Shown here piece after piece: positions 25,430 through 52,879 of a stretch of DNA of 64,000 bases. Made by a program: the position numbers and the translations under genes. The stretch is taken from assembly GCA_948465965.1 (NCBI GenBank), contig CAOJYR010000005.1, positions 714-64,713 on the forward strand, in the 5' to 3' direction. The DNA is from an uncultured Mycoplasmatota bacterium (GTDB lineage Bacteria > Bacillota_I > Bacilli_A > RF39 > UBA660). Below the pieces are notes generated by a model, which was given only the letters and a program-made list of their open reading frames with translations, ran no database searches and was not told the DNA's origin. The first letter of the stretch is position 1. Every line of letters begins with the position of its first letter.

Positions 25430-26056
25430 ATGAGGAAAATTATCTTTATTTTTTTTATAATTTTTTTATTTTTTAGTTGTATCAATTGTTCTAGTGATGA
25501 AGTGTTTTTATATGATGACTTATTATATAAAGATATAAAGGGGAAAATCTATATACCTAATACGAATATTAATCATTATATTTTACAGGCTACTGATAAT
25601 TCTTATTATTTAAATCATTCTTATACTGGTGATAGTGATAAGTATGGAAGTATATTTTTAGATTTTAGAAATGATATTTTAGATAAAAAACTTTTAATAT
25701 ATGGGCATAATTCTAAATATGATGATAAGGCTTTATTTAAGGATTTAGAAAATTATAAGGAACAATCCTTTTACAAAAATAATCAATATATTTATGTAAC
25801 TTTTGGTAGTGTTAAATATAAGTATTTAATATTTTCTATTAATATAGTCTCTAAGGATGATCATTCTCATACAAGATTAAAATATAGTCATATGGATTTT
25901 TATAGATATCTTTTGGATACTAAGAGTTATTCTTTATATGATACTTATGTTGATGTAGGTGAAGATGACTTTGTTATTACATTACAAACTTGTAATTATA
26001 CTCCATATGATAATACTTATTTATTAATAAATGCGAAGAGGGTTGATAGATTATGA
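25430..26056 (+). CDS. Sortase B-like transpeptidase (His and Cys present, canonical Arg position substituted)
   Basis: Aligns by eye along its length with S. aureus SrtB: YGSIFLDFRN, LIYGHN, EQSFYKNNQYI, ITLQTC. N-terminal membrane anchor. Confidence 0.75.
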   Translation: MRKIIFIFFIIFLFFSCINCSSDEVFLYDDLLYKDIKGKIYIPNTNINHYILQATDNSYYLNHSYTGDSDKYGSIFLDFRNDILDKKLLIYGHNSKYDDKALFKDLENYKEQSFYKNNQYIYVTFGSVKYKYLIFSINIVSKDDHSHTRLKYSHMDFYRYLLDTKSYSLYDTYVDVGEDDFVITLQTCNYTPYDNTYLLINAKRVDRL

Positions 26057-27069
26057 AAAAAATATTTTTAATAGTAATTTTTATTTTAATATTTAGTTTT
26101 TGTGTGAATTGTTTTGCTCTTAGTCGATGGGATACTGATAAAGTTATCTATTCTGCTATGAGTGATAAGATTATAGAAGAGATGGTTCCGGTTCATAATG
26201 AGGTAGGGGATTTAATCGGTTTTCGTGTTTTAATAACAATACCTAGTGATTACCAAGAAGATGAAATTGTTATTGTTCCTAGTGTTTTTCAGACTATTAA
26301 TAATTATAAGCATTTAATTCCAGGAGAAGAAGTTTCTATTGATTTAAAAGTTATTAATCATTCCAAATTTGATTATCAATATGTTAATAATAGTTTTATT
26401 TTGAGTACCGATGATTTATCTAGATATGGGGTAGATACTACTTTTTCACAAAATTATGGAATTGGTTTTGATGGAAATGTTATCTATGATCATTTCTTAG
26501 TTTATAGAACTTGTAATGAAGCAATTCGTTCTTTGTATGATAATGATTTTTGTGATGATGCTTTAAGTGATGATATTTTAGATGTAAAACTTAAGGATAG
26601 AGGTTATTCTGGTGTTCAGCAGTTAAGCCAATATTATTTGGATTTTTATAATAATAAGTATAATTTGAAAGAGGATAATTTAGATGAATTCACTTTTTCT
26701 GTTGCGAAAGAGATATTTGGTGGTAAGATTAGCAATATTAAAGAAAGTGATCCTGAGATAGTTAGGCTTTCTTATCATTATTTTTATAATAAATTACTTT
26801 ATTATAAGTTTAGTGATCAGGAAATTGATTCTTATAATAGTGATGAATTTAGTATTGGTAATTATAAAAGAAAGGGTATTGGTAATGAGTACTTTAAAAG
26901 TGGGTTTCAGAATATCGAAAGTGGGTCATTTTCTGAGATCAATCATATGAAAATAGGGATTAATGATTATTATTATTCAGAAATCTTTAATGATTATGGT
27001 TTGTATGGTTATATGGAATTTAGATTAGAGAAGAGTGGTGTTATTGTTCCACCTAATACTGGTATTTAA
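26053..27069 (+). CDS. Secreted protein ending in PPNTG-I (sortase-B-type motif without hydrophobic tail)
   Basis: Signal peptide MKKIFLIVIFILIFSFCVNCFA. C-terminus is ...GVIVPPNTGI*. ATGA overlap with the sortase-like gene. Confidence 0.6.
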   Translation: MKKIFLIVIFILIFSFCVNCFALSRWDTDKVIYSAMSDKIIEEMVPVHNEVGDLIGFRVLITIPSDYQEDEIVIVPSVFQTINNYKHLIPGEEVSIDLKVINHSKFDYQYVNNSFILSTDDLSRYGVDTTFSQNYGIGFDGNVIYDHFLVYRTCNEAIRSLYDNDFCDDALSDDILDVKLKDRGYSGVQQLSQYYLDFYNNKYNLKEDNLDEFTFSVAKEIFGGKISNIKESDPEIVRLSYHYFYNKLLYYKFSDQEIDSYNSDEFSIGNYKRKGIGNEYFKSGFQNIESGSFSEINHMKIGINDYYYSEIFNDYGLYGYMEFRLEKSGVIVPPNTGI

Positions 27070-27097
27070 AAAAGTTTAAGAAATTCTTAAACTTTTT
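27068..27097 (+). terminator. Rho-independent terminator
   Basis: AAAAAGTTTAAG-AAATT-CTTAAACTTTTT hairpin immediately after the stop codon. Confidence 0.75.
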
Positions 27098-27265
27098 ATG
27101 TTTATTTTTGTTATTTGTATCTTTTAATATTAGTTAATTTTATTAAATTATCTTTTTGATTGTTTTATACTTTTTTTATAAGTTTGAAAAGATTTAAAAG
27201 ATTTCTTTTCAAATTTATTAAAATCAGGTATACTTTATTATAGGATAAGAATAGAGGGTGTTATT

Positions 27266-28822
27266 ATGATTATTAGAAAACCATATGCATTTTTGATTAG
27301 GCATTTTAAGAAGATTCATATCTTTTTGTTGGCGTTATGTTTATATGTATTTTACAAAAATTCTCAAGCTAGATCTTTTGTATCTGAATTTTTAAATTTA
27401 GGTACTTATGATGTTTATAATGAGCCTATATCAAACTATATTAATTTTATTTCTATTCTGTTTATTTTTATTATTATTGTATTAGCGATTGCTTTGATTA
27501 TTTTATTAAGACATAAGGGTAAACCATGGAAACTATATTTAATACCAGTTGTTGCGTATGGTTATATGTTGGTTGTATTTATTATTACAACAAACTTTTT
27601 TGCCTCTTATAATGGTACTGGTGGGACTACTGGTATTCGAGCAATAAAAGATTTGCTTTTTATATCTTCTCTTTTTCAATATCCAGTTTTTATAATTCTT
27701 TTGATTCGAATACTTGGAGTAGATTTAAAGAAATTTAATTTTAAGGCGGATGAGGAGTATTTAGAACTTGGTAGTGAAGATAGAGAAGAGTTTGAAATAA
27801 GTATTGATATAGATAAAGACAGTTTCAAAAGAACTTATAAAAGACTTATACGAAATATTAATTATGTATATCAAGAACATAAGTTTATTATTAATAGTTT
27901 AATTACAATTATGATAGTGGGAATTTTGGGATATTCTTATTATTATATGTTTATTGTTCATAAGTCCTATAGGGAAGGTAGTCTTATTAATACTAGTGGT
28001 TATGGTATTACTATTAATAATAGTTATTATACAGATAAGAATTATAATGGGGAGGTTATTTCTTCTGATAGTAGTTTTGTAATTATAGATTTAAATATAA
28101 AAAATTATATTCAAGCTAGGGAAATTAATTTTAATCGATTCCATGTAATGAATGGGGTGAGTAATTATAGTTATACCTTTAAAACCTATGAGACCGATTT
28201 TGGTGATTTAGGTAAAACCTATGAGAAGAAGGAAATTAAAAGAGATGAAGAGTTTAATTTAATCATGGTTTTTAAGGTAGATAAAAAACTGGATAAAAAT
28301 GGGTTTGTCTTATATTATCAAGAGTTTGATAATAATAAGCCTTATTTAAGAAAAATAAAGCTTAATATAGATGATTTATCAAAAATAAAGAAGGATAAAC
28401 AAAAAAAACTTGGTGAAGAATTAATTATGAAAGAAGAAAAGAAAAATAAGGATTTAACAATTGAACAAATAGAAATTGATGATAGTTTTGAATATTCATA
28501 TCAAGATTGTACTAGTAGTAGTGGTTGTTATACAAGTAGTGAGAGTGTAGGTGCAAGAGAGGGTGAAAAAATACTAAAAGTTGACTTTATATCTGATGTG
28601 TTTGAGGGTAAAGATTTAATTGACTTTTCGACTAAATATGGTAAAATTAGTTATATAGATGATAAGGGTAAAAAACAGGTAGTTAATATTAAGGATGCAG
28701 TAAGTAAAAAGTATTTTGGAAAGTATATGTATATTAGGATTCCTCGTGAAGTGGAGAGTTCTAGTTCTATAAACCTTATATATACTGTTAGAAGTAATCA
28801 ATATAGTTATAAAATAAAATAG
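27266..28822 (+). CDS. Polytopic membrane protein with extracytoplasmic beta-rich C-terminal domain (unknown function)
   Basis: 518 aa with about 4 N-terminal TM helices, a further TM (SLITIMIVGILGYSYYYMFIV), then a domain reminiscent of DUF4352-type Ig-like folds (SSFVIIDLNIKNY). Confidence 0.5.
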   Translation: MIIRKPYAFLIRHFKKIHIFLLALCLYVFYKNSQARSFVSEFLNLGTYDVYNEPISNYINFISILFIFIIIVLAIALIILLRHKGKPWKLYLIPVVAYGYMLVVFIITTNFFASYNGTGGTTGIRAIKDLLFISSLFQYPVFIILLIRILGVDLKKFNFKADEEYLELGSEDREEFEISIDIDKDSFKRTYKRLIRNINYVYQEHKFIINSLITIMIVGILGYSYYYMFIVHKSYREGSLINTSGYGITINNSYYTDKNYNGEVISSDSSFVIIDLNIKNYIQAREINFNRFHVMNGVSNYSYTFKTYETDFGDLGKTYEKKEIKRDEEFNLIMVFKVDKKLDKNGFVLYYQEFDNNKPYLRKIKLNIDDLSKIKKDKQKKLGEELIMKEEKKNKDLTIEQIEIDDSFEYSYQDCTSSSGCYTSSESVGAREGEKILKVDFISDVFEGKDLIDFSTKYGKISYIDDKGKKQVVNIKDAVSKKYFGKYMYIRIPREVESSSSINLIYTVRSNQYSYKIK

Positions 28823-28831: not shown

Positions 28832-30640
28832 ATGGATAAAGAGAAAATGTTGAAATATGGTAAAATTATAATTATTTGTTTGGTCTTGGGATTAATTATT
28901 TGGTTTTTAATAGTTTCTCCTCTTTTTACGTTTAAAAGTAATGAGAATAAAATGTTAAAGGCTGGAAAGAGATATTTTGAAGTTAATAGTAATGAACTTC
29001 CTACTGGGAGTAGAGTTAAGGCTATTTCTTTAAAAGATCTTTATAGTAAGTCTTTTTTAGAGGATGATTTTTATGTTCCTTTATCACACAATGCTTGTAG
29101 TGTTACTGAAAGTTGGGTTAAGGTAAAAAGAGTAGATGGTGAATATAAATATTATACGTATTTAAAATGTGGTGTTTTGTCTTCGATTGTTGATCATAAA
29201 GGGCCTGAAATAACTTTAAATGGTGATGATACGATTACTGTTAATAAAGATGGTAAATATAGGGAACTTGGTGTAAAAAGTGTTAATGATAATAGTGATG
29301 GAGCGATAGATGTTAGCAAAGTAGAGATTAATTCTAAGAGTGTTGATACTAGTAAAGTTGGTACTTATGAAGTTACTTATACAGCATATGATAGTCTTAA
29401 TAATAAAACAGAAAAGGTTAGAAAAGTTAAGGTTGTATCTCGTTTAAAAAATACTGTTAACAAAGAGACAAATAATACTGGTTATTATGTTGGAGGTAAT
29501 CCTAATAATTATATTTATTTTTCAGGAATGTTATTTAGAATTGTTGGGGTTAGTGGTGATAATGTAAAAATTATTGCAGATTCTGATATAAGTAATGTTA
29601 ATTACAGTGGTATAGATAAATGGTTAGATTATTATTATAAACATTTAACTGATAAATCTAAAAAATATATTGTAGAAGATAAATACTGTAATATGAAATT
29701 AAATGATGAGACAATTAATACAGTTGAATGTAGTTCTTATACTAAGAAGAGAAAATCCTATATTATTTCTGTTGATGAGGTGAATAGAAGTTTAGTAGAT
29801 GGATCAAGTTATTTAAAACCAAATACTTTATCTTGGACATCTAATACATTTGATAAGGATAATTCTTATGTAACTAGAAACGTATTCTATGAAGGTGAAT
29901 ATGGCAAGACAGTTATTGCAATGCCAAATGAATATAACTATGGAGTTAGACCAGTAATTACTGTAAGGGGTGATACTCTAATAACAGGTGGTATGGGAAA
30001 ATTTGATGATCCATATTTAATAGGAGATATGAAATCAGGTAAGGCAAATGATAGTTTAAATAAAAGGTATACTGGTGAATATATAAAATATTCAGGATAC
30101 ATGTGGAGAATTATTGATGTGGACAGCGATGGGACTACTAAAGTTATATCCGAAGGAACCTTAAAAAGTGATGGAATAGATGTAGAAACTAGATATAATA
30201 CTGATAGTGAGTTTAAGATATATAATCCAAAGGAAAAAGGAAATGTTGGATATTTTATAGAAAATAAGGCGAGTGAGTATCTGAAAACAGATTATTTTGT
30301 ATCAAAAAATGTAATGGTACCAATTTATAAAAATTATATAAATTATGGGAAAGAAGTTGAAACAAAGAAATACAAAGTAAAATTATCTGCTCCTAACATG
30401 TATGAGATGTTTAGCGCTTATAGTGTTAATACAAATGATAGGTGTGGAACTTATTGGGAAATCAATTCATCAAAAACAGCGGAGCGTAAAGCAGTTGTAA
30501 TGGATATTGGATATCAGGTTAATGAAGAATTAAGTGATAATTATGATTATGGATTAAGAGTTGTGGGATATCTTTCCAAGGATGTTAATATAGTTAGTGG
30601 TAGTGGAACAGTTAATGATCCATATGTAATAAGCAAGTAA
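28832..30640 (+). CDS. Membrane-anchored surface protein: pilin-like head + Ig-like (DUF5011-type) domain + two GVRP-type modules
   Basis: N-terminal TM. GPEITLNGDDTITV...VDTSKVGTYEVTYTAYDSLNN matches the DUF5011 Ig-like pattern. Two modules end in YGVRPVITV / YGLRVVGYL, each followed by G-x-G...DPY-x-I. Confidence 0.6.
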   Translation: MDKEKMLKYGKIIIICLVLGLIIWFLIVSPLFTFKSNENKMLKAGKRYFEVNSNELPTGSRVKAISLKDLYSKSFLEDDFYVPLSHNACSVTESWVKVKRVDGEYKYYTYLKCGVLSSIVDHKGPEITLNGDDTITVNKDGKYRELGVKSVNDNSDGAIDVSKVEINSKSVDTSKVGTYEVTYTAYDSLNNKTEKVRKVKVVSRLKNTVNKETNNTGYYVGGNPNNYIYFSGMLFRIVGVSGDNVKIIADSDISNVNYSGIDKWLDYYYKHLTDKSKKYIVEDKYCNMKLNDETINTVECSSYTKKRKSYIISVDEVNRSLVDGSSYLKPNTLSWTSNTFDKDNSYVTRNVFYEGEYGKTVIAMPNEYNYGVRPVITVRGDTLITGGMGKFDDPYLIGDMKSGKANDSLNKRYTGEYIKYSGYMWRIIDVDSDGTTKVISEGTLKSDGIDVETRYNTDSEFKIYNPKEKGNVGYFIENKASEYLKTDYFVSKNVMVPIYKNYINYGKEVETKKYKVKLSAPNMYEMFSAYSVNTNDRCGTYWEINSSKTAERKAVVMDIGYQVNEELSDNYDYGLRVVGYLSKDVNIVSGSGTVNDPYVISK

Positions 30641-30658
30641 ACTATACAAATCGTTGAG

Positions 30659-31531
30659 GTGATTTATACGCTGAGTAGTATTAAAGTAGGTAAAAGAAAA
30701 ACCAAAGTAATGATTATATTATTTATGATTACTATTTTGACGCTTTTTGTTATCTGTACAAGAGATATAATTAATTTGTTTAAAAAAGATATATATAGTG
30801 TTGATAGCAGAATCAATAATATTCAAGAAGAAATAAAAAAAGATGATGTGGAAAATTATAGTACTATAGGATGGCTAAGAGTTCAGGGAACTAATATAGA
30901 TACACCTATTCTTTATTTAAATTATACAAAAATAGAAAATGATGAAGATGATGATGATTATTATGGTAGTGGAGATATAACAGTAGATAAACAGAGTTAT
31001 TTATGGAATAATATTTATGAGGAAAACCTTTTAAATAAAATAAATATTCAAGGCCACAACATATTGAATTTATCAGAACATCCAGATATTGGGCTTGATC
31101 AATTTTCAAGATTTGATGATTTGATGGCGTTTGTTTATTATGATTTTGCTAAGGAAAATAAATATATTCAATATACAGCTAATGGAAAAGATTATATTTA
31201 TGCAATATTTTCAGTAGAATTTGTAAAAGATAGTGATTTAGATACATATGTATATGAAAATTATTCTAAAAAAGAAATGAAAAAAAATATTAGGAACTCC
31301 ATAGAAAATAGTTTGTATAAATATAATATTAAAGTTAATGAAAATGATAAGATAATTTCATTAATTACATGTACTAGGATGTTTGGAGATAATTCAAATA
31401 CAGACTTTGTAGTAAATGCTAAGTTGGTTGAAAAAAATAAAAAATTAAAAAATTATAGTATACGTAAAACTAAAAAATATAAAGAAATTGAAAGTATACT
31501 GGAAAGTGAGGTAGAAAAGAATGAAGCATGA
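30659..31531 (+). CDS. Second sortase B-like protein (divergent)
   Basis: GWLRVQGTNIDTPILY, IQGHNILN (His), ISLITCTRMF (Cys), FVVNAK. The start is uncertain: GTG 30659 overlaps its own RBS, and ATG 30710 is an alternative. Confidence 0.6.
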   Translation: MIYTLSSIKVGKRKTKVMIILFMITILTLFVICTRDIINLFKKDIYSVDSRINNIQEEIKKDDVENYSTIGWLRVQGTNIDTPILYLNYTKIENDEDDDDYYGSGDITVDKQSYLWNNIYEENLLNKINIQGHNILNLSEHPDIGLDQFSRFDDLMAFVYYDFAKENKYIQYTANGKDYIYAIFSVEFVKDSDLDTYVYENYSKKEMKKNIRNSIENSLYKYNIKVNENDKIISLITCTRMFGDNSNTDFVVNAKLVEKNKKLKNYSIRKTKKYKEIESILESEVEKNEA

Positions 31532-34268
31532 GTTTAAATGTTTAGGGGTTATATTAGTTTTTGCTACATTAATAATGCTTGGTAATTGTGATGTTTATGC
31601 TGCTTCTATAGAAGAGTGTAATAATTTTGAAGCAAAGATGGAGAACTATTGCGCAGCATCAAAAATTGAAAGTGAATATGGACTTCAGATGGAAAGGGTA
31701 GGAAAGAATAAATATAAAATATCAGTTACAAGCAATAAATTAAGTAAAGATAGTAGTGATACTTTTGTCGTTAAAAAAATTGTTGGTGAATATACAGGTG
31801 ATCATAAAGATGATATAAGCCAATTGAAAGTGACTAAGGCACATAGCTTGGTATTAAAAAATTTGAAACCTAATTCATCAAATGTAATTAAAGTAAAATT
31901 GAAATTAACTAATCCTTCAACTAATTTTGGTAAGAAATGTTTGGGAGATTCAGATGCATTTTCTGGTGCTAATCAAAGATTGGAAGAAGAATGTGACTAT
32001 AGTGGTGGAATAACCTATACTTTAAAAGTAAGAATAGATGAAGACCTTGGCAAAACTGTTATAACAAGTAATGCAGCAAGTAGAACTGATAATTTAGCTG
32101 TAGAATCATCAACAACACCACATTCGGATTTTAATAAGTTCTTAGGTGTAGCAATAGATAAAACAGAAGAACAGAGAAAGGGTACTCAGGTTTTAAAATG
32201 TGATGCAAATTCAACTAAATATACTTATCTTAATGGCAGAAAGTTAACACCAGCAGAGGTTAATGAATATACAGAAACTAATACAACAAATGACTATAAG
32301 TATAAAAATATTAATGTTTATAAATCTACAAGTAATAAAAAGACAGGAACTCTTGTGTATACATACAATAGGAGTGGAAGTATAAAGAAGGTACGAGTAC
32401 CAAATGTTTGTGAACAATCGTGTACTGAAGTAGTTAAAGTCGAGTATGGAGCACCAGTAGCTTCAAAAGCAGGACTTTGTTTTGACTATCAATTTAAAAT
32501 TACAAGTTATACAAAATGTGATACTAAATTTGGTGCGAAAAAACCTAATAAAACTGATTATACAGTTTGTACACCTAAGCCTCAATGTGTTAGTAGATCA
32601 GGTGCTGTACATACACAAGGTGGTCCAAATGAGGATTTTGAAAGCTGTATAAGAGAATGTGATGGTGGAAAATATACTAGAAGTTGTAGTGACAAATGTT
32701 ATAAACAAGTTTATTCAACAGGTATAAAGAAAATCGCTGATTTAAATAATACATCCTTAATTACTAATTTAGCAAATACAGATCCAGAAAAATGTTCAGA
32801 TAGTGATGGTTGCTATTATAGAGTTGGAGATACAGTGTATTGGCAAAGTAAAAGCGAGAATCTTGGTAGATGGTATAGAGTGTGGTCTACACATCATGGT
32901 GGTGCAACATATAGTCCTACTGTACAATTTCCAGGACATACATATTTTATATTAACAACTGGAAAAGGAGCAGGAATTTGGAAAGCTACTGATTGTAATG
33001 AAAATTGTAGTTGGTCAGATGATAATTGTGATGATTCGGATTATTTAAATCCTAAACAAGCGACAGATGATTATGAGCGTAATTTGGAAATGTATGATCG
33101 AGAAAAAGAACAATGTATTGCAAAGGCAAGTTGTAATTCATCAACTTCAACATATACAATAAAAGTTAATTATGCTACACCATCTGGTGAGGAGACAATA
33201 GAATTTCCAAAAATAGGCAAAAATGATTCTGTAACTACAGGAGGATCTAATACCTTATCTGATTCTAATACAACGTTAACAACATTGGTTAATGACTCAG
33301 GATCTTGTAATGCTACTAAGGGTTCACCAAGTGAATGGTATCAATCTGAGTGGACTTTCCCAGGAACATGGATTAATAATAAAACTGGAGAAATTCAATA
33401 TAATAAACCGTCCTCTTCTGAAGGATGGCATCAGGAGAAAAATAAGTTCTGTATACCACTAGATGCTAAGAGTGTTAATACAAAGTGGTGGGAATGGAAT
33501 AAAATTGGTAATTCATGTTATTCTGATAGTAACGGTGATTTTAAATCATCTTTAGTTAGTGAGATTCAAAATAATATAATAGGTTCTGTAAGAAATTTTG
33601 GACATTATGGAGATGGTGATAATAATAAGACTGGTTGGAATTTTGATATAAAGTGTTTCTATGCCCTTAGAAATGAAATTTGTGAGGAAAATGACAAGGG
33701 TTGCTGCACCACTCCTGGAGGAGATACTTCATCTGGTGGTGGAAGTGGAGACAATAATAAAGTCGGTGTTGATAATTATAGATTTAGAGTTGTAACTACT
33801 TCTGATTTATTCCCTAATACAAATGGATCTAGTTCTACTACTGAAGATTATATGAGAACAGGTAGAACCCCAGGATTTAACTGGTCTGACGAAGCCAAAA
33901 ATGATAAAAATAGTAAATATCAAGTTGATCCTCAAACATTAATTGGTAAAATTCAGGAAAGAAAATCTTTAATATATAGTGACGCTAACAAAAGTAAATA
34001 TTTGGATTATGAATTTACTTTAGATCAAAATGCCCTTCAAAAAATTAGAGATTATACTAAAAATCATAAAGAGAAAACTAATGATAACGACAATAGATAT
34101 AAAGAAACTTATACAAATTTTGATAATGGTAGTATAGATACTCGAAATGGAGTGGCTGCTTATTCTAGTCCATTGATTAGATCTGAATTGTCTGGAATTA
34201 CTACTAAAGATGGTAAGCGTGTAGTTAGTAAGAGAGGTAATATAGGTATTAATAATGATAATGAGTAA
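31521..34268 (+). CDS. Large secreted cysteine-rich protein (unknown function)
   Basis: 915 aa. Signal peptide ...LIMLGNCDVYAAS. About 30 Cys, many in C-x2-3-C / C-x-x-x-C spacings. G/S-rich linker TTPGGDTSSGGGSGDNN. Confidence 0.6.
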   Translation: MKHEFKCLGVILVFATLIMLGNCDVYAASIEECNNFEAKMENYCAASKIESEYGLQMERVGKNKYKISVTSNKLSKDSSDTFVVKKIVGEYTGDHKDDISQLKVTKAHSLVLKNLKPNSSNVIKVKLKLTNPSTNFGKKCLGDSDAFSGANQRLEEECDYSGGITYTLKVRIDEDLGKTVITSNAASRTDNLAVESSTTPHSDFNKFLGVAIDKTEEQRKGTQVLKCDANSTKYTYLNGRKLTPAEVNEYTETNTTNDYKYKNINVYKSTSNKKTGTLVYTYNRSGSIKKVRVPNVCEQSCTEVVKVEYGAPVASKAGLCFDYQFKITSYTKCDTKFGAKKPNKTDYTVCTPKPQCVSRSGAVHTQGGPNEDFESCIRECDGGKYTRSCSDKCYKQVYSTGIKKIADLNNTSLITNLANTDPEKCSDSDGCYYRVGDTVYWQSKSENLGRWYRVWSTHHGGATYSPTVQFPGHTYFILTTGKGAGIWKATDCNENCSWSDDNCDDSDYLNPKQATDDYERNLEMYDREKEQCIAKASCNSSTSTYTIKVNYATPSGEETIEFPKIGKNDSVTTGGSNTLSDSNTTLTTLVNDSGSCNATKGSPSEWYQSEWTFPGTWINNKTGEIQYNKPSSSEGWHQEKNKFCIPLDAKSVNTKWWEWNKIGNSCYSDSNGDFKSSLVSEIQNNIIGSVRNFGHYGDGDNNKTGWNFDIKCFYALRNEICEENDKGCCTTPGGDTSSGGGSGDNNKVGVDNYRFRVVTTSDLFPNTNGSSSTTEDYMRTGRTPGFNWSDEAKNDKNSKYQVDPQTLIGKIQERKSLIYSDANKSKYLDYEFTLDQNALQKIRDYTKNHKEKTNDNDNRYKETYTNFDNGSIDTRNGVAAYSSPLIRSELSGITTKDGKRVVSKRGNIGINNDNE

Positions 34269-39138: not shown

Positions 39139-39166
39139 TTGTAAAATTTTGCTATTTTGGTATAAT
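39139..39166 (+). promoter_or_regulatory. Candidate sigma-A promoter for the pilin-like gene
   Basis: TTGTAA-16 nt-TATAAT. Confidence 0.5.
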
Positions 39167-40877: not shown

Positions 40878-40879
40878 TA

Positions 40880-40908
40880 TTGACAAAAGATATTTAATAG
40901 GTTAATAT
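40880..40908 (+). promoter_or_regulatory. Candidate sigma-A promoter at the head of the T4SS module
   Basis: TTGACA-17 nt-TAATAT. Confidence 0.55.
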
Positions 40909-44178: not shown

Positions 44179-44704
44179 TTATACTGAGAATTGGTTACCT
44201 GTTAGGGGTATTCAAAATGGTATGATTATCACTTATAATAATTTAAAGGTTACTGGTGTTAAAATTGAACCACGTAATATCTTTATATTAGATCCGCAAT
44301 CTCAAAATAATATACTTATTAGTTTAAAGAATTTTTATAATATGATTGATTTTGAGTTTTGGTTGGTTGTTGCGGATAGACCTGTAGATATTTCTGTTTA
44401 TATGTCTCAGTTACAGCTTTTGTATAATGAAACATCTTCTCCAGCAATTAGAAAGTTGATTATGCAGGATATCGATAAGGGTAATACTTTTATTAATAAT
44501 AATATTGTCGATACTGAGTATTATTTCTTATTTAAGGAAAAGGATCCTGATATGTTACAGAAGAAGGTTAGAATGATGATCAATGGTCTTGCGAGTTGTG
44601 GTTTAAATGCTAGTCAAACAAGTAATGATGATTTGCGAGTTGTTCTTGATAATTTCTTAAATGGGGGTAGTACTACACAGTTTGGGACGGTGATGCCAGT
44701 ATGA
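44156..44704 (+). CDS. VirB4-family N-terminal domain encoded as a separate ORF
   Basis: TENWLPVRGIQNGMIITYNNLKVTGVKIEPRNIFILDPQSQNNIL matches the characteristic N-terminus of Gram-positive VirB4/TraE ATPases. ATGA overlap with the ATPase ORF. Confidence 0.6.
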   Translation: MAKKVRNNYTENWLPVRGIQNGMIITYNNLKVTGVKIEPRNIFILDPQSQNNILISLKNFYNMIDFEFWLVVADRPVDISVYMSQLQLLYNETSSPAIRKLIMQDIDKGNTFINNNIVDTEYYFLFKEKDPDMLQKKVRMMINGLASCGLNASQTSNDDLRVVLDNFLNGGSTTQFGTVMPV

Positions 44705-46510: not shown

Positions 46511-48739
46511 GTGATGTCGGTGCCAAATGTTGGGAATAATAATCAATCTAGTGGTCAACAAGGTTATAGTGCCAATAGAACTGGCACTGGTAAAAACACC
46601 AATAATAATGATAATGTAAATTCTAATAAAAAATCAGGTGAAGTATATAAAGCAAGACCTGAAGATACAACTAAGAATCAAGAACAACCAAGTTCTTCTA
46701 AGAAAGCAGCCAAGACTGCAGCTAAGGCTGCTGGTGCATATTTGGGCGGACCTGTTGGTGCCAAAGCTGTTGATGCTCTTTCCAAAACAAAAATGGGAGA
46801 TAAAATATTAAATAATGCAGCTAAGAAGGTTGATAGAAATCCAATCATGAGGAGAGCTGCTAAAAAATTGGATGATAAAGGTGCCATTGATGTGGCAGAT
46901 AAAGCTATTGATATAGCAGGGTCAAATCCTAGTGCTGCTAGTGGTAATTCAGGAGCTAATAATGGTGCTAAAGAAGCATCATCGGATTCTTCTAGTGGAT
47001 CAACTGGTGGTGGTATGGGTTCTAACTTTTTACCCGGACCTTTTGGTAGAAAAAAACCTAATTTTTTAAACAATGATGAAGATAATAAGGATTCAAATAA
47101 AGATTCTTCTTTTAACGGAATTTTTTCTGGTTCTCTTTCTATTAAAGTTGCAGTTATGGTATTTGCTCCTGCGCTTTTGTCTTTATTGTTGTTTTCTACT
47201 GTTATATTAGCAGCATCAGGTGGTACTAGTACTTATGATGATGCAATGGGAGTTAGTGATAGTACAGGAGGTAATACCGGAAATATTGGTTATAATGCAT
47301 CAAGTCCTGAGGCTAAGGCTTTTTATGAAAGAGTAAGGGATGTAAAAAGTGAGTATCAATCTAATGGAAAGAATATAGATGTGATCTATATTGCGGGTGT
47401 TTTTTATTCTTTACAAAGTAATGTGTCTGGCATAGATTATGATTCGATGTCCACTTCTAGAATAAAAGAAATTGCGGATGCTATGTTTAAAGAAGAAAGT
47501 ACAACTTTCGATAAGGATGTCTTTCAGGATAATTTAGTTAATCATGTTTTTTTAAATTATTTACCAAATTCTAGTGTAGCGAAAAGAAAGAAAATGGCAA
47601 AAGATGCCTTAGAATATGCTAATAACTATAAAGATTTGGTTAGAGAGTGGGAAAAGGGATCTACTGGTGACTATTGTATAAGTAGTGATTTACAGGCCGA
47701 TACTTTATGCAAGCTTCATAATGAAGGCAATTTAGCAGAATGGATTAATCAGTTTGGACCAGTTGCTCAACAGGATTATAGTCGTACTGGTGTTTTTGCA
47801 TCTATTACTATGGCTCAGGCAATAATAGAGTCTGGTTGGGCATGTAGTGATATACAGAATAATTTATTTGGTATTAAATGTAATGGTTATTCAACGTGTA
47901 CGAATGTTGCAACACATGAAGAAGTTAACGGTCAATCCGTTGCTATTACTGATTCATTTAGAACTTATCCTAGTATTGCACAATCCATTATGGATCATTC
48001 GAACTTTCTAATGGAGAATCAAAGATATACAACAGCAGGTGTATTTAGTGCTAAAAATTATTCTGATCAAGCATATGCATTAAAAAGAGCTGGTTATGCT
48101 ACATCTAGTTCTTATGCAACTACCTTAATTAATGCTATAGAGCAATATAATTTGTCACAATATGATGTAGTTGTTAATACATCATCTAGTGGTTCTTGTT
48201 CTGGAACTGGAACATCTTTGGGTGGATGGACCTTACGTACTGTTGCTCCAACAGCTAGAGATGTAGCGTTTACCTATAAAAATTCAAATCGTGGTCAATG
48301 TGTATGGTATGCACAGGCGCGTGCTATTGAAATTGCACAGGATTTGGCTTCTAAAGGTAAAATAACTAGTGAACAAGCTGACAAAATTAAAAATCAACTA
48401 CTAAACGTTTATGGTAATGGTGGAGATTGGTATAATAATACAAGAGGAAAATTTAAAGGTAGTAATAATATAAAGGATTTAAAAGCAGGATCTATTATTT
48501 CGTGGACTCAACCTGGTGGATATGGACATGTTGCTATTATTGAAGATGTCACTGATAGAACAGTTACGGTTACTGAGGGTTGGGCTGATAATACAACTAG
48601 TTGTCCTAATAGTTGGGGATGTGTTAACTTTAGAAGTAAGACTGTATCATTAGATGATTTTTATAATTCTTATGGAAAATATTATTCAGGAAGTTATAAT
48701 TTTAGTGGATATGTTTACTTTTTAGAATTAGAAGGCTAG
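46511..48739 (+). CDS. T4SS-associated bifunctional cell-wall hydrolase (GH73 glucosaminidase + CHAP), VirB1 analog (CwlT/PrgK/TcpG-like)
   Basis: ~210-aa low-complexity N-terminus, one TM. GH73 pattern AQAIIESGWACSDIQNNLFGIK...YATSSSYA. CHAP pattern RGQCVWYAQARA...GYGHVAIIE. Confidence 0.8.
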   Translation: MMSVPNVGNNNQSSGQQGYSANRTGTGKNTNNNDNVNSNKKSGEVYKARPEDTTKNQEQPSSSKKAAKTAAKAAGAYLGGPVGAKAVDALSKTKMGDKILNNAAKKVDRNPIMRRAAKKLDDKGAIDVADKAIDIAGSNPSAASGNSGANNGAKEASSDSSSGSTGGGMGSNFLPGPFGRKKPNFLNNDEDNKDSNKDSSFNGIFSGSLSIKVAVMVFAPALLSLLLFSTVILAASGGTSTYDDAMGVSDSTGGNTGNIGYNASSPEAKAFYERVRDVKSEYQSNGKNIDVIYIAGVFYSLQSNVSGIDYDSMSTSRIKEIADAMFKEESTTFDKDVFQDNLVNHVFLNYLPNSSVAKRKKMAKDALEYANNYKDLVREWEKGSTGDYCISSDLQADTLCKLHNEGNLAEWINQFGPVAQQDYSRTGVFASITMAQAIIESGWACSDIQNNLFGIKCNGYSTCTNVATHEEVNGQSVAITDSFRTYPSIAQSIMDHSNFLMENQRYTTAGVFSAKNYSDQAYALKRAGYATSSSYATTLINAIEQYNLSQYDVVVNTSSSGSCSGTGTSLGGWTLRTVAPTARDVAFTYKNSNRGQCVWYAQARAIEIAQDLASKGKITSEQADKIKNQLLNVYGNGGDWYNNTRGKFKGSNNIKDLKAGSIISWTQPGGYGHVAIIEDVTDRTVTVTEGWADNTTSCPNSWGCVNFRSKTVSLDDFYNSYGKYYSGSYNFSGYVYFLELEG

Positions 48740-48746: not shown

Positions 48747-49436
48747 ATGAAAAAAATTTTTAAACTTTTCTTAATAATTATTTTAACTTTATTTATTAGT
48801 GGTTGTACTGTTAAATATGATTTAACTATCGATAATAATGGTATGTATGAAAATATAAGATTATATTTTGTTAATAATGCAGAAAATAATAAGTTGGTTG
48901 ATAGTTTATATAGTCAAAATAGATCTGCTTATTATGATTTTGATACAAATATGACAAACTATTATAAAACTACTAAGGGTATTGATAAAGATCATGATTT
49001 ATTATATTTGAACTATTATTATGAATATAATGAAAATAAACTTCAGAATTCTAATGCAATTAATGAATGTTTTTATAATAAAAGTGTTACTAAAGATGAG
49101 AAGTATATTACTTTAAATACTAGTAAGGGATTAGACTGTATTTATCGTGATACAGTGAAGCAGATTGATAAATTAGAAATTAACATTAAGACTAAATATT
49201 TAGTTGTTGAATCTAATGCTGATAGTGTTTCTAAAAATACATATACTTGGAAAATTACAGATAAGAATTATAATGAAAAATCAATATATATGAAAATTGA
49301 TTATAAAAATAACTATAAGGAAGAAACTCCAATTTATATTATATTAGTGTTATTTGGTATAGTAATAGGTGGTTTTATACTTATCATAGCGTTAAAATTA
49401 AGAAGAAATAGGACGTATGATAAAAAATATAAATGA
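48747..49436 (+). CDS. Lipoprotein with C-terminal TM anchor (unknown T4SS accessory)
   Basis: Lipobox LFISGC after a signal peptide. C-terminal helix IYIILVLFGIVIGGFILIIALKL followed by RRNR. Confidence 0.55.
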   Translation: MKKIFKLFLIIILTLFISGCTVKYDLTIDNNGMYENIRLYFVNNAENNKLVDSLYSQNRSAYYDFDTNMTNYYKTTKGIDKDHDLLYLNYYYEYNENKLQNSNAINECFYNKSVTKDEKYITLNTSKGLDCIYRDTVKQIDKLEINIKTKYLVVESNADSVSKNTYTWKITDKNYNEKSIYMKIDYKNNYKEETPIYIILVLFGIVIGGFILIIALKLRRNRTYDKKYK

Positions 49437-49484: not shown

Positions 49485-51683
49485 ATGAAATTTAAATTCA
49501 GGGCTGATCCAGAAGATATAACAATTTTTGTTATATTTGCTGTTTTTTTACTTTATGTAGTTTGTGTTGGAGTACTTAATCTTCATTCTTTTGCAACTGA
49601 GGGGTATTTGTATGGATTAAATCCGTTTCCTGCTTTTTCTCCTAGATTTATCGCGGCTACTTTAACTTTATATTTTTTAACTTTAGGAGGACTCTTGGTA
49701 AGTGTTAGTTCTTACTTTTTTGAACGAGAGAAGGGCTTTGGTTTTACAACAGATAAGAAAGATAAAGGTTATTCTAGATGGGCTAAGGAAAAAGAAATTA
49801 AGGAAGAGCTTGAACAAGTAGAAATTAAGCAAAAAAATTCTAAAGTGGCTGGAGTTCCATTAATTTTAAATGATAAAGAGATGTGGGTTGATAATAGTGA
49901 ATATCACTCATTAGTTATTGGTGCTACTGGTTCAGGTAAAACACAAACAGTAATTCTTCCTTTGGTTCATAGTTTAGCTAAGGCTAAAGAATCAATGATT
50001 ATTACCGATCCTAAAGGTGAAATTTATGAAAAAACGAGTACTATGCTTCGTGATAGAGGTTATCAGATTTTACTTTTGAACTTTCGTGATCCTCAAAATG
50101 GTAATGCATGGAACCCAATGACTTTACCCTATCAAATTTATAAATCTGGTAATCAAGATAAAGCTATTGAGTTATTAGATGATTTGGCTTTAAATATTTT
50201 GTATGATGAATCAAATAAAAACGCTGATCCATTTTGGGAAAAGACTTCTGCAGATTATTTTTCAGGAGTTGCCCTTGGACTTTTTGAGGATGCTAAAGAA
50301 GAAGAGATTAATATTAATAGTATCTCCTTAGCAACTACTGTTGGTGAAGAGAAATTTGGTGGATCAACATATATTAAAGAATACTTCGGAGCAAAAGATC
50401 CAGCTAGTGCAGCAGCAATAAATGCTTCTAGTACTATTATGGCTCCAACTGAGACAAAAGGAAGTATTTTATCTGTATTTAAACAAAAGGTTAAATTATT
50501 TGCATCGCGTGATAATCTAAGTGAGATGTTATCGCATAGTGATATTGATTTAGCGAGTATTGGTGAACGTCCTACAGCTGTATTTATTGTTATTCAAGAT
50601 GAGAAAAAGACTTATCATTCGTTGGTTACTATTCTTTTAAAGCAAATCTATGAAACTTTAATAAGTGTTGCACAAAACAATGGTGGTAAATTACCAGTAA
50701 GAACAAATTTCCTATTAGATGAGTTTGCGAATATGCCACCTTTAAAGGATGTTACTACTATGATTACTGCGGCTCGTTCTAGGTTGATTCGTTTTACGAT
50801 GATTATTCAAAACTTTGCTCAACTTGATCAAGTTTATGGTAAAGAGAATGCAGAAACTATACGTGGTAACTGTGGTAATATTATTTATTTGATTACTACT
50901 GAACTTAAGGCTTTGGAAGAGATTTCTAAGATGTGTGGTGAAGTTAAGTCTAAAAAAGATGATAAAACTGCTTCTACTCCATTAGTTACAGTTTCAGATT
51001 TACAAAGAATGAAGCAATTTGAAGTTATTATTCTTCGTATGAGAAAGCAGCCTTTTAAAACCAAGTTTACACCATACTTTAAGCTTGATTGGGGAAAGAA
51101 GTATCCTAAGGCGGAATATCCTGAGCGTGAAAAGCAAGTGGTACATACCTTTGATATAAAAGAATTTGTAAAAGATCAAAAGAAGAAAAAGCTATTAGAA
51201 ATGATGAATGCTGCAGATGATGAGAAAAAGGAAATGCCTAAACATCAGGAAATGTTTGGTGGAACGCCTAGAGGATCTAATCCGTTTATGGGAGATAGTA
51301 ATCGAAGTTTGCCTAATGGTATGATGCCAGGATTTATGATGGGAGGAAATGATAATCCATTTTCTTCTAAACCTGTCCAGAATCAAATGTCGCCTTTTTC
51401 TAACAATGATAATTCTTCTATCAAGTCTTCTTCTAAGGATGATGGAATTGGTTTTGATGTAGATGAGTTAGTTAAAAAGATTGATGCAAAGATTGCAGAA
51501 CTAGAAGAGGAAGAGAAGAGAAATAAAGAGGAACAGAAGAAGGAAGAAGAAAAGAAGGTAAATACAGACAAAACAGTAGCAATCCCTGATAAAATTGAGG
51601 AGAAAAAGTCGTCAAGTAATGATTTAGTTATTGATGATGATCCTGATGATGATGAATTTTTTGATGACTTTTTTGATAATTAA
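49485..51683 (+). CDS. virD4: VirD4/TraG-type type IV coupling protein with acidic low-complexity tail
   Basis: Two N-terminal TMs, Walker A VIGATGSGKTQ, ITDPKGE, Walker B FLLDEFANM, FTMIIQNFAQL. Confidence 0.85.
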   Translation: MKFKFRADPEDITIFVIFAVFLLYVVCVGVLNLHSFATEGYLYGLNPFPAFSPRFIAATLTLYFLTLGGLLVSVSSYFFEREKGFGFTTDKKDKGYSRWAKEKEIKEELEQVEIKQKNSKVAGVPLILNDKEMWVDNSEYHSLVIGATGSGKTQTVILPLVHSLAKAKESMIITDPKGEIYEKTSTMLRDRGYQILLLNFRDPQNGNAWNPMTLPYQIYKSGNQDKAIELLDDLALNILYDESNKNADPFWEKTSADYFSGVALGLFEDAKEEEININSISLATTVGEEKFGGSTYIKEYFGAKDPASAAAINASSTIMAPTETKGSILSVFKQKVKLFASRDNLSEMLSHSDIDLASIGERPTAVFIVIQDEKKTYHSLVTILLKQIYETLISVAQNNGGKLPVRTNFLLDEFANMPPLKDVTTMITAARSRLIRFTMIIQNFAQLDQVYGKENAETIRGNCGNIIYLITTELKALEEISKMCGEVKSKKDDKTASTPLVTVSDLQRMKQFEVIILRMRKQPFKTKFTPYFKLDWGKKYPKAEYPEREKQVVHTFDIKEFVKDQKKKKLLEMMNAADDEKKEMPKHQEMFGGTPRGSNPFMGDSNRSLPNGMMPGFMMGGNDNPFSSKPVQNQMSPFSNNDNSSIKSSSKDDGIGFDVDELVKKIDAKIAELEEEEKRNKEEQKKEEEKKVNTDKTVAIPDKIEEKKSSSNDLVIDDDPDDDEFFDDFFDN

Positions 51684-51697
51684 TAGGAGGACATAAT

Positions 51698-52879
51698 ATG
51701 AGTGATAAATTTAATGTAGGTAAGATTAATGTTTTAGATACAGAAGAAAAAGAGGATACTCCTAAAGATAATAAAAATAGTAATGAATTTAAAAAGAAAA
51801 TGTTGAAATTATCAGGAATTATATTAGGTGGGTTGATTCTATTACTATTGATTTTGGCTGTTTTTTCTCTTTTTTCTAAAAAGGATTATTCTTATGATGA
51901 TATTGAAGAGATTTTAAAGAATGCTGCGATAAGTTATTTTGGTGATCATAAGAAAAGTTTACCAAAGGATGAAGAACAAGTTGTTGAAATTAATTCTTCT
52001 ACTTTAATTGCTTCTGAATATATGAAGGAAATGGAAAAATATACAGGTGAGGATATTAGTTGTACGGGAAAAGTTATTGTACAAAAAAGCGGTAACGATT
52101 ATTCTTATACTCCTTATCTAAATTGTGGTGAAAATTATGCTACACAATCACTTTACCAGATTGTTACTAAGAAGACTGTTAATAGCGGGGCAGGTTTATA
52201 TAATTCTAATAACTCTTATGTATTTAGGGGAGAAGATGTAAAAAATTATGTTGAACTTGATCGTTCTTTATGGAGAATAGTTAAAATTACTTCGGATAAT
52301 AAAATTGTTTTGGTTTTAAATGGAGAATATAACTATAATTATCCATGGGATAATCGTTATAATATGCAGTCTAAATACAATTCTGGAATCAATCAGTATG
52401 ATGCTAGTAGAATAAGATCATATTTAAATGACATATATAAAGATAATGAGGATACTACTGCTATATTAAGTAGTAATGATAGAACTAAGCTTTCTAGTTT
52501 TAATTTATGTGTAGGAAATCGTAGTACTTTTGAAGAAAGTAAGGATAATTCTATTGAATGTTCCAATAATTTGTCTAATCAAAAAATTGGATTGTTAACT
52601 GTTTCTGATTATATTAATGCTAGTATTGATAGTAATTGTTTAAATTCACTTAGTCAGTCTTGCCAAAATTATAACTACTTAGAGACTGATTTTGATTGGT
52701 GGTTAGCAACATCTGTTCAAGATAGTACAGATTATGTGTTTTATGTTGATAATGGTGGAGTAGTAAAATCTGAATCTGCATCTGTTTATGCAGGTGTTAG
52801 ACCCATAGTCTATTTATCTGATACAACTTTATTTAAGAGTGGAAAAGGTACAGAGAAAAGTCCTTATAAAATAAAATAG
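51698..52879 (+). CDS. Membrane-anchored surface protein, paralog of 28832..30640 (pilin-like head + one GVRP-type module)
   Basis: The N-terminal TM and head domain align with ORF 28832 (...YF...LP...C-x-G-x-V-x-V...Y-x-Y-x-x-YL-x-CG). C-terminus is WWLATSV...YAGVRPIVYL...GKGTEKSPYKIK. Confidence 0.6.
   Translation: MSDKFNVGKINVLDTEEKEDTPKDNKNSNEFKKKMLKLSGIILGGLILLLLILAVFSLFSKKDYSYDDIEEILKNAAISYFGDHKKSLPKDEEQVVEINSSTLIASEYMKEMEKYTGEDISCTGKVIVQKSGNDYSYTPYLNCGENYATQSLYQIVTKKTVNSGAGLYNSNNSYVFRGEDVKNYVELDRSLWRIVKITSDNKIVLVLNGEYNYNYPWDNRYNMQSKYNSGINQYDASRIRSYLNDIYKDNEDTTAILSSNDRTKLSSFNLCVGNRSTFEESKDNSIECSNNLSNQKIGLLTVSDYINASIDSNCLNSLSQSCQNYNYLETDFDWWLATSVQDSTDYVFYVDNGGVVKSESASVYAGVRPIVYLSDTTLFKSGKGTEKSPYKIK

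Follow-up and report, generated by a model that had tools for sequence, protein, structure and literature searches.

A Tad-like filament module and a Gram-positive type IV secretion apparatus in one conserved chromosomal locus of RF39-type gut Bacilli

Introduction

The conjugation regions of two groups of Bacillus plasmids, the pLS20 family (Val-Calvo et al. 2021, PMC8557374) and the pAW63/pXO2/pBT9727 type, whose tra region was described by Van der Auwera et al. 2005 (PMC1196294), are the closest described relatives of the locus that we report here. This locus lies between greA and a rhodanese gene in a 64,000-nucleotide stretch of DNA (hereafter the window) from an uncultured Mycoplasmatota bacterium of the GTDB order RF39 (GenBank assembly GCA_948465965.1, contig CAOJYR010000005.1, positions 714 to 64,713 of the forward strand). 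It combines genes for surface proteins and sortases, a module resembling the Tad (type IVc) pilus and a Gram-positive type IV secretion system (T4SS). In the plasmid literature the ATPase that we assign below to the filament module is called "VirB11", its neighbours are given as "unknown", and the pLS20 family is presented as having no pilus components (PMC1196294, PMC8557374, PMC9673590). VirB2 homologues are also stated to be absent from the pLS20 family (PMC8557374).

Another likeness, drawn from published descriptions, is with the Patescibacteria or candidate phyla radiation (CPR), in which a chromosomal, lineage-wide T4SS without relaxase is found in reduced genomes (Quinonero-Coronel et al. 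2025, PMC12102498). The Patescibacteria system is of monoderm type and derived from MPF_FATA, with VirB4, VirB3/PrgI, VirB6 and arrays of VirB2-like PF18895 pilins; it is thought to be co-opted and non-conjugative, and one Saccharimonadia strain was reported to require it for growing epibiotically (PMC12102498). By analogy, this relaxase-less chromosomal T4SS would be the closest counterpart, in status, of the locus in the window. However, it belongs to another phylum, no linked Tad-like ATPase/platform module or sortases are described for it, VirB1 is often absent and the type IV coupling protein is not always linked (PMC12102498). As for the host lineage, RF39 bacteria are described as strongly genome-reduced, auxotrophic for many compounds and, in most cases, surrounded by a peptidoglycan wall (PMC12306168, PMC10868615). 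Such a wall and such auxotrophies fit the peptidoglycan hydrolase and the sortases encoded in the locus and a dependence on neighbouring cells. A partial coverage of the literature on RF39 in combination with T4SS, pilus or conjugation, which leaves room for an earlier description, returned no description of this locus.

Results

Relatedness to conjugative plasmids

Between greA (24886-25365) and the rhodanese gene (52938-53228), 24 co-directional open reading frames (ORFs), all on the plus strand, encode surface and sortase proteins, the Tad-like filament module and the Gram-positive T4SS. Their junctions range from -23 to +196 nt, and a Shine-Dalgarno-like motif is present upstream of 18 of them. 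A preliminary description of the window, made from its sequence, had reported these 24 ORFs with short or overlapping junctions at coordinates that match ours. The motifs that it had listed were all recovered, i.e. GETGSGKTE and STIHAD in the filament ATPase, GTSGSGKST in VirB4 and GATGSGKTQ in VirD4.

In tblastn comparisons with plasmids, VirB4 found its best matches in Bacillus thuringiensis plasmids (29.5% identity), and the filament ATPase matched Bacillus plasmids including pLS20. The T4SS part of pBMB67, a plasmid of the pAW63/pXO2 family, comprises a MobP3 relaxase, VirD4 (CD1115 family), a protein with two transmembrane segments (2-TM), TrbL, PrgI and the separately encoded N- and C-terminal parts of VirB4 (VirB4-N and VirB4-C). 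About 9 kb beyond the T4SS genes, the same plasmid encodes an SLH-domain surface protein, an 851-aa hypothetical protein, a DUF5411-like protein and a SAF-domain protein, and the filament set continues with a ParA-like AAA protein, a T2SSE ATPase, two polytopic proteins and small TM proteins. The pBMB67 proteins are 33% (VirD4, E 1.6e-67), 29.5% (VirB4-C, 1e-84), 27% (VirB4-N, 1e-13), 27% (CpaB-like, 2e-20), 26% (ATPase, 1e-33), 23% (TadB-like, 7.5e-7) and 23% (TadC-like, 3.6e-5) identical to those of the window, and an AAA_31/CbiA (ParA-like) protein occupies the position equivalent to that of the TadZ-like protein. In pLS20 the filament part consists of an adhesin, a DUF5411-like protein, tadA (gene 37, the "VirB11" of the literature), two polytopic proteins (genes 38 and 39), two small proteins with an N-terminal TM segment (genes 40 and 41) and a PF18895 T4SS_pilin protein (gene 45). 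The T4SS part of pLS20 holds VirD4, a VirB6-like giant TM protein, a VirB3-like protein, VirB4-N and VirB4-C, followed by a MobP2 relaxase. Identity between pLS20 and the window is 37% for the ATPase, 28% for VirD4 (CD1115 family) and 23% for the C part of VirB4; the pLS20 ORF at the VirB4-N position is similar in size to the window VirB4-N and shows no detectable match to it. The DUF5411 counterparts are gene 36 of pLS20 (9446-9826 of the fetched region) and hyp134 of pBMB67 (30260-30664), which match PF17424 with E-values of about 1e-5 and scores of about 26 bits, under the Pfam cutoff of 30. Pfam backs the ParA-like and the T4SS_pilin assignments in the plasmids; the pLS20 T4SS_pilin protein (14035-14265 of the fetched region) scores 32 bits against a cutoff of 26.6.

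The window locus thus possesses the mating-pair-formation part of a pLS20/pAW63-class apparatus, at identities of 23-37%. It differs from pLS20 in several respects. That replicon is a strain-variable plasmid with a MobP2 relaxase, oriT, replication functions and quorum-sensing control, whereas the window locus is chromosomal and has none of these. VirD4 precedes the channel genes in pLS20 and follows them in the window. No SAF/CpaB or TadZ-like gene is annotated in pLS20, and the window locus adds sortases. The plasmid pBMB67, in turn, carries a MobP3 relaxase along with partition genes, insertion sequence elements and introns, and its two modules are about 9 kb apart. The preliminary description had presented the joining of Tad and T4SS genes as a possibly novel composite. 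This view has to be given up, as pLS20 and pBMB67 carry a homologous pairing in nearly the same order, together with MobP relaxases. Since both modules are located within the conjugation regions of pLS20 and pBMB67, their pairing would be an ancestral feature of a Gram-positive conjugation class. The Tad-like nature of the plasmid "VirB11" module seems to be under-recognised.

Fixation of the locus in related genomes

Gut metagenomes contain close relatives of the filament ATPase by the thousands, and a protein identical to it is present in the searched collection. In a scan of one genome per species, a relative was found in at least 218 genomes. The titles of the records read "Mycoplasma sp. 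CAG:877", "uncultured Tenericutes UMGS...", "Candidatus Faecimonas", "Bacilli bacterium" or the like; NCBI places Candidatus Faecimonas in Bacilli incertae sedis, and we take these names to correspond, probably, to the GTDB order RF39. Related loci were analysed over +/-10 kb around anchor genes in two sets. The ATPase-centred set has 81 loci, 80 from the species scan plus one separately fetched contig that is also in the scan, and the VirD4-centred set has 80 metagenome loci.

The segment from the 4-TM protein gene at 27266 through VirB4 is collinear in 78 of the 81 ATPase-centred loci. In 77 of the 80 VirD4-centred loci the order VirB2-like, VirB6, VirB3, VirB4-N/C, hydrolase, VirD4, DUF6273, rhodanese, VTT, RmuC is kept. 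All six non-collinear calls are due to extra or ambiguous paralogue matches and not to rearrangement. greA is upstream in 53 ATPase-centred loci, and rhodanese, VTT and RmuC are downstream wherever the flank reaches that far. Even a divergent branch, with a VirD4 66% identical to that of the window, ends at rhodanese, followed by typA and proS. A comparison of the greA-rhodanese interval across relatives, as advocated in the preliminary description, returns a single chromosomal site.

Median identities to the window proteins are 90% for VirB4-C, 85% for the ATPase, 81% for the TadB-like protein, 79% for VirB4-N, 76% for the pilin, 75% for VirD4 and 74% for the TadC-like protein. Among the flanking genes, the corresponding values are 90% for GreA, 82% for RmuC and 63% for the HD protein. 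Surface-exposed proteins and VirB6 are at 34-52%. The core ORFs are intact in the window and in about 160 related loci, and variability is confined to three genes of the locus, those for sortase 1, for its substrate with the broken signal and for the lipoprotein. Recent horizontal spread was considered as a cause of the 90% identity and rejected, because flank synteny is kept and GreA and RmuC are equally conserved. At the sequence level, this pattern would mean vertical inheritance, with strong purifying selection on the motor and diversifying surface parts. The fixed synteny, the conservation of the motor and the fast-evolving surface parts argue that the locus is neither an integrative and conjugative element (ICE) nor a decaying remnant.

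Search for relaxase and integration functions

No relaxase, recombinase, Rep or Par protein was matched by Pfam or NCBIfam among the locus ORFs or the scanned window ORFs of at least 90 aa; the sole transposase-like match in the window is a PD-(D/E)XK_2 protein (5936-6706). The MobP2 relaxase of pLS20 and the MobP3 relaxase of pBMB67, used as tblastn queries, had no match with E <= 1 in the 2.7 Mb made up of the window and 160 related loci. Direct repeats at the borders are at most 8-10 nt long, which does not exceed the shuffled controls, so that no att repeat was recognised, and no tRNA gene was found. The by-eye statements that the locus has no relaxase, recombinase, replication or partition gene and no border repeats are consequently borne out. 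In terms of CONJScan-type components, VirB4 and a type IV coupling protein are present, and neither a relaxase nor an integrase or att site was detected.

The only soluble protein of the locus without a sequence-level assignment, the 329-aa product of 39888-40877, was for this reason the sole candidate for a hidden relaxase. It was rejected, as the fold predicted by AlphaFold2 (AF2) is of TadZ/CpaE-like architecture and not that of a nickase.

Channel and coupling proteins

The T4SS module begins with two paralogous VirB2-like 2-TM proteins. In the first (40934-41287), two TM helices flank the conserved motif DLGKAVI-SDEK...AQ..LIKR, and the second (41369-41752) matches T4SS_pilin (PF18895, E 3.2e-4) and the Mbov_0395 pilin-like family (NF045849, E 0.02). 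The second protein has 127 aa here and 300-424 aa in several relatives, the T4SS_pilin domain being followed by a large variable C-terminal extension in some species. It is worth mentioning that an NlpC/P60 hydrolase gene located 24 kb upstream among housekeeping genes (16948-17793, plus strand) also encodes an N-terminal VirB2-like T4SS_pilin 2-TM domain (PF18895, E 4.4e-4) resembling the two VirB2-like proteins of the locus. Its product may be a third, hydrolase-fused component of the locus machine.

The next gene (41773-43845) encodes a VirB6/TrbL-like polytopic channel protein (PF19597, E 3.8e-5; NF045848, E 5.7e-8; NF045889, E 8.5e-5), the two NCBIfam entries being families of Mycoplasma ICE TM proteins. 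It is followed by a VirB3/PrgI-like membrane protein (43864-44178) with one long hydrophobic stretch at residues 14-55 and a median identity of 72%, by the N-terminal domain of VirB4 as an ORF of its own (44156-44704; positions 99-276 of NF045975, E 3e-14) and by the C-terminal part of the VirB4 ATPase (44701-46491; NF045975, E 6.5e-104; NF045971, E 8e-49; PF12846, PF19044). On the Mycoplasma ICE VirB4 model the ORFs starting at 43864, 44156 and 44701 cover positions 2-96, 99-276 and 296-891, respectively, the first of these matches being marginal (E 0.05). The VirB4 and VirB3/PrgI assignments of the preliminary description hold, and we reassign ORF 44156-44704 to the N-terminal part of VirB4. 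That the three ORFs represent a frameshifted pseudogene was rejected. Every locus that extends to this point keeps the N/C split, and pLS20 and pBMB67 share the ORF layout, which argues that the split is not a frameshift.

The VirB1 analogue is a peptidoglycan hydrolase with a GH73 glucosaminidase and a CHAP domain (46511-48739; PF01832, E 2e-29; PF05257, E 2e-15). A lipoprotein gene comes next (48747-49436); its product has a lipobox-like N-terminus and a C-terminal TM segment, is poorly conserved and was found in few loci. The VirD4-type coupling protein (49485-51683; PF02534, E 2e-56) ends in an acidic tail and reaches 303 bits with the CD1115 family model NF045973, above the curated cutoff of 250.

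Families from Mycoplasma ICEs (Mbov_0395, Mbov_0396 and Mbov_0397) are the best family matches for the pilin-like, VirB6-like and VirB4 proteins. The ICE order, i.e. pilin-like protein, TM protein, VirB4, is that of the window, with all family scores below cutoff (348 bits against 590 for VirB4). The Mycoplasma elements are mobile by means of a DDE recombinase and their hosts are wall-less; to our knowledge, they contain neither a Tad-like module nor a hydrolase.

Filament proteins

The filament module opens with a single-TM DUF5411 protein (34284-34757; PF17424, E 2.5e-48). The following gene (34781-35593) encodes a CpaB/RcpC-like SAF-domain protein (TIGR03177, E 4.5e-9; PF16976, E 2.7e-6; SAF, E 0.004) with scores below cutoff, namely 36 bits against 71 for TIGR03177 and 27.7 against 28.8 for PF16976. 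The motor (35632-37422; PF00437 T2SSE, E 1e-27) can be placed in the CpaF/TadA/FlaI clade of filament ATPases. In phmmer searches its best PDB matches were FlaI (8e-20) and CpaF (7e-18), then VirB11 (1e-14), and the NCBIfam order was VirB11 (116 bits), TadA family (104) and FlaI (96). As these NCBIfam scores are all far below the cutoffs, the placement is provisional. Residues 1-345 are nearly invariant in 14 homologues and the C-terminal tail is hypervariable. This tail (36670-37422) is about 250 aa long, disordered and of low complexity, and varies in length and sequence between species. A conserved VDFSSLxxLE-like motif closes most homologues, and it could be a docking peptide.

Two polytopic platform proteins are encoded downstream, a TadB-like protein with five TM segments (37438-38340) and a TadC-like protein of similar size and position (38340-39122). 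They have no direct Pfam, NCBIfam or PDB match, and show weak similarity to one another at the N-terminus (hhalign probability 14.5%, E 0.0019). The alignment profiles of both, and of the TadZ-like protein, retrieved nothing meaningful from PDB sequences. When the TadB-like family profile was run against 1.8 billion representatives, 251 clusters were obtained, mostly fragments, with one full-length distant relative whose T2SSF match is near threshold. This relative, P0393, aligns with the TadB-like protein at 97% hhalign probability. The AF2 model of the TadB-like protein is poor (pLDDT 50, shallow alignment). The TadB/TadC-like calls made by eye thus find indirect support through P0393 and T2SSF, and no direct family match.

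The two next ORFs have a conserved leader in common, M-[KR]-x-A-x-G, with a hydrophobic helix behind it in the manner of a pilin and a minor pilin. One encodes a Flp-sized, pilin-like protein of 56 aa (39236-39406) with the conserved N-terminus MKAATGELNLTVITLIAIAAV. The other specifies a minor-pilin/TadE-like protein of 143 aa (39421-39852), which starts with MRDAFGG before its hydrophobic helix and is kept in this form in 18 orthologues. The last gene of the module (39888-40877) encodes the cytoplasmic TadZ/CpaE-like protein of 329 aa, with a receiver-like N-terminal domain and a degenerate ParA/MinD-type domain. No sequence-level match was found for it. The P-loop is degenerate. The AF2 model (pLDDT 81.5) has a two-domain architecture, and Foldseek matched it to HypB, ParA, BcsQ, MinD and FlhG with E-values of 1e-5 to 1e-2 and low TM-scores (0.3-0.5). 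The TadZ-like call of the preliminary description thus finds tentative support at the fold level.

Compared with the Tad/Flp pilus of Caulobacter, Aggregatibacter and Pseudomonas, the module shares a CpaF/FlaI-clade ATPase and a pilin-like protein of about 50 aa accompanied by a larger, minor-pilin-like one. The CpaB/RcpC-like protein, the two-gene platform and the TadZ-like ParA/MinD protein with receiver-like N-terminus may be further points in common. It differs in that a prepilin peptidase is lacking in cis, the leader is non-canonical and there is no secretin, a component that is dispensable in a monoderm. In addition, T2SSF is not directly detectable, and the module always resides inside a T4SS locus, never standing alone.

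Proteins at the cell surface

The greA-proximal edge of the locus is variable. A first sortase-domain protein (25430-26056; PF04203, E 4e-11) is an accessory, with matches of about 28% identity in 34 of the 81 loci compared. The adjacent variable gene (26053-27069) encodes a protein with a signal peptide that ends in PPNTGI directly before the stop codon, and is present in 9 of 81. We take PPNTGI to be a (S/P)PXTG-type motif such as is found in C. difficile sortase B substrates. The hydrophobic stretch beyond it lies behind two stop codons (window 27040-27160), so this product is probably a sortase substrate with a decayed cell-wall sorting signal.

The conserved core starts with a 4-TM membrane protein bearing a large C-terminal extracytoplasmic domain (27266-28822), with no Pfam or NCBIfam match, which occurs in 73 of 81 loci; the 71 matches that cover at least half of it have a median identity of 52%. 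An N-terminally anchored surface protein with a bacterial Ig-like domain follows (28832-30640; PF16403, E 1.7e-15; N-terminal TM); it occurs in 77 of 81 loci, again with a median identity of 52% (75 matches covering at least half). The second sortase-domain protein (30659-31531; PF04203, E 1.2e-7) is conserved, being found in 78 of 81 loci at a median identity of 42%. Next to it, a 915-aa secreted Cys-rich protein (31521-34268) has a signal peptide and conserved Cys columns; its median identity among related loci is 34% and none of 16 orthologues had a Pfam match. It is a candidate adhesin or contact protein. At the other end, the last gene of the locus (51698-52879) encodes an N-terminally anchored DUF6273-like surface protein (PF19789, E 8e-5). 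Among the 43 VirD4-centred loci that span 12 kb or more, 34 have it after VirD4, and it is covered over at least half its length in 57 of all 80 VirD4-centred loci (median identity 47%).

A complete LPXTG-type signal (LPXTG, TM segment and basic tail) was found in none of the large surface proteins of the locus. No Cna/SpaA-type Pfam domain was found in the locus either, which does not qualify as a sortase-assembled pilus locus despite its two sortase-domain proteins. From the surface module proposed earlier, the two sortase-domain proteins therefore stand, and a complete sorting signal is carried by none of its proteins.

Genomic neighbourhood

The GC content of the window is about 28%, with a strong positive GC skew, and the plus strand carries nearly all genes. 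Upstream of the locus are ruvX, yceG/mltG, an O-methyltransferase gene, two U32 peptidase genes, an HD phosphohydrolase gene and greA, and downstream are the genes for rhodanese, a VTT-domain protein, rmuC, a class I tRNA synthetase and a member of the bile-salt-hydrolase family, then a T-box and gatCAB. The T-box leader (58899-59132, plus strand; RF00230, 130 bits), located 5' of gatCAB, is the sole match of an Rfam scan, which had no match inside the locus. Three tandem paralogous ORFs of 209, 217 and 233 aa (22728-24822, plus strand) between the HD gene and greA encode proteins with one central TM segment each and without family match; they are present in 13-17 related loci at 25-30% identity. 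The lowest-GC island of the window (5000-13000, 23-25%) contains the PD-(D/E)XK_2 transposase-like gene, genes for a WYL/HTH regulator, an NT5C-like protein and a PfkB-domain fusion, and a 769-aa ORF without Pfam match, and it may be an accessory or defence island.

The terminator reported at 52881-52910 in the preliminary description exists as a hairpin with T-run on the plus strand (52879-52910). It is weak, with an 8-bp AT-rich stem (-7.3 kcal/mol, z = -1.9) followed by UUUCUUUUUUUU, and was not called by a consensus terminator scan.

Discussion

We have shown that a pLS20/pAW63-class apparatus is encoded at one chromosomal site, between greA and a rhodanese gene, in the window and in about 160 related loci. 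The reading that we favour, with a probability of roughly 0.7, is that the locus derives from this class, has become fixed in the chromosome, is inherited vertically and now acts as a core envelope organelle in a small-genome lineage of gut Bacilli. Judged from its gene content, it would have lost the relaxase, oriT, replication and integration functions, or would never have retained them in cis. A domesticated envelope machine in a monoderm was one of the possibilities raised in the preliminary description, and the fixed position of the loci and a motor as conserved as GreA speak for it. The other possibility, an ICE remnant, would be true only as distant ancestry, given that identities of 85-90% and an undisturbed gene order extend over hundreds of species. 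The parts, the pLS20-class architecture and an outcome of the Patescibacteria type are known. What appear to be new are the lineage and the chromosomal fixation together with Tad-like and sortase/surface genes.

Several points weigh against this reading. The T2SSF homology of the platform proteins is transitive only, through the P0393 region that matches PF00482 at E 2.3e-5 and 24.8 bits, just under the Pfam cutoff of 25.2. The pilin-like leaders are not the canonical Flp G/xxxxEY, having neither E at +5 nor Y. A prepilin peptidase (A24) is absent from the locus and from the scanned window ORFs, and such an enzyme could act in trans. A relaxase and an oriT could be present elsewhere in the genomes of the lineage, beyond the +/-10 kb considered. 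Finally, all related genomes are metagenome-assembled, and they probably belong to RF39 as far as record titles and the GTDB taxonomy indicate.

In the machine that we propose, the GH73+CHAP hydrolase would open the peptidoglycan. The ATPase, the TadB/C-like platform, the CpaB-like and DUF5411 proteins and the TadZ-like positioning protein would polymerise the 56-aa pilin and the minor pilin into a short filament or piston across the wall. The existence of such a filament is inferred, as are the cargo and the direction of transfer. VirB4, made of its N and C parts, VirB3, VirB6 and the two VirB2-like 2-TM proteins would form the membrane channel. The fast-evolving surface proteins, possibly with the sortases, would contact a partner cell, and VirD4 would pick the cargo and feed it to the channel. 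The outcome may be contact-dependent transfer of a macromolecule between the bacterium that bears the locus and another cell. The retention of VirD4 argues for selected substrates, which may be protein or nucleoprotein. The lack of a relaxase in cis, combined with housekeeping-level conservation, argues against ordinary self-transfer.

The locus could still be a DNA-conjugation machine that exports chromosomal or mobilisable DNA by means of a relaxase and an oriT located elsewhere, or of an unrecognised DNA-processing protein. This would amount to built-in chromosomal gene exchange, comparable to the ICE-driven chromosomal transfer of mycoplasmas. All characterised relatives, in the pLS20 and pAW63 families, are indeed conjugation systems (PMC8557374, PMC1196294), and a VirD4 of the conjugative CD1115 family is retained here above its family cutoff. 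VirB4, VirB6 and the pilin-like protein have their best NCBIfam matches in Mycoplasma ICE families, with the same gene order. Those elements too, as far as we know, have no recognisable canonical relaxase. Yet Pfam and NCBIfam recognised no relaxase in the 64 kb window, the 2.7 Mb searched contain no relative of MobP2 or MobP3, and a gene-exchange system would not usually be conserved like a housekeeping gene in hundreds of species. We regard conjugation as rather unlikely for these reasons, though still as a serious rival. It is improbable that the locus is a competence-like importer in which the filament captures DNA and the channel takes it in, as in the archaeal Ced system or with the ComB T4SS of Helicobacter. 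There are precedents for import through a T4SS with the help of type IV pili (PMC12102498), and reduced genomes and a high degree of auxotrophy are described for the lineage (PMC12306168, citing Nayfach 2019). However, no DNA-binding or ComEA/ComEC-like gene was found in the locus, and VirD4 is conserved here at 75%. We know of no T4SS importer with a VirD4-type coupling protein.

It could also be argued that an adhesive Tad pilus and a T4SS, unrelated in function and regulation, are neighbours by chance. Of the internal promoters claimed in the preliminary description, the consensus-like sites at 39139, ahead of the pilin gene, and at 40880, ahead of the first VirB2-like gene, do exist and are intergenic, so that sub-operons are possible. 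Promoter-like sites nevertheless occur at chance density in the window (142 observed, 129 +/- 10 expected), and the scan is uninformative in such AT-rich DNA. Co-occurrence of the two modules had been put forward as a check. Wherever a related locus is long enough to include the two, they lie side by side in collinear order, and both are also paired inside the conjugation regions of pLS20- and pAW63-type plasmids, which makes a chance association very improbable. Still harder to sustain is a degenerating, non-functional remnant of an integrated conjugative element, which we hold for extremely improbable. The missing relaxase, integrase and att site, the broken sorting signal of the edge gene 26053-27069 and the variable presence of this gene, of sortase 1 and of the lipoprotein gene would fit decay. 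The core ORFs, in contrast, are intact in about 160 loci with order and position kept, and VirB4 and the ATPase are 85-90% identical, equal to GreA.

RF39-type Bacilli are common in the human and animal gut and are uncultured, with reduced genomes and many auxotrophies. One of the strongest clues to their lifestyle is a 25-kb envelope machine that has stayed intact at a single site and is as conserved as housekeeping genes, and it points to obligate cell-cell interaction. If our favoured reading of a domesticated, chromosomally fixed apparatus is true, this would be the second independent case, after the Patescibacteria, of a monoderm conjugation apparatus domesticated without relaxase. A bolder possibility, somewhat doubtful at present, is that it is a lineage-defining and possibly essential intercellular organelle of RF39-type bacteria, a domesticated conjugation apparatus with its own Tad-like filament that exchanges proteins, nutrients or DNA with neighbouring cells. 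Small-genome auxotrophs would then depend on such an organelle, in parallel with the Saccharibacteria, whose T4SS is needed for epibiotic growth. For the plasmids, the complete Tad-like module and the VirB2-like proteins within the conjugation regions of pLS20 and the pAW63/pXO2 family have been under-recognised. If true, the plasmid "VirB11" clusters would be Tad-like filament machines and one class of Gram-positive conjugation would not be pilus-less. This bears on the long-standing view of Gram-positive conjugation as a filament-less process, and is genetically testable in B. subtilis.

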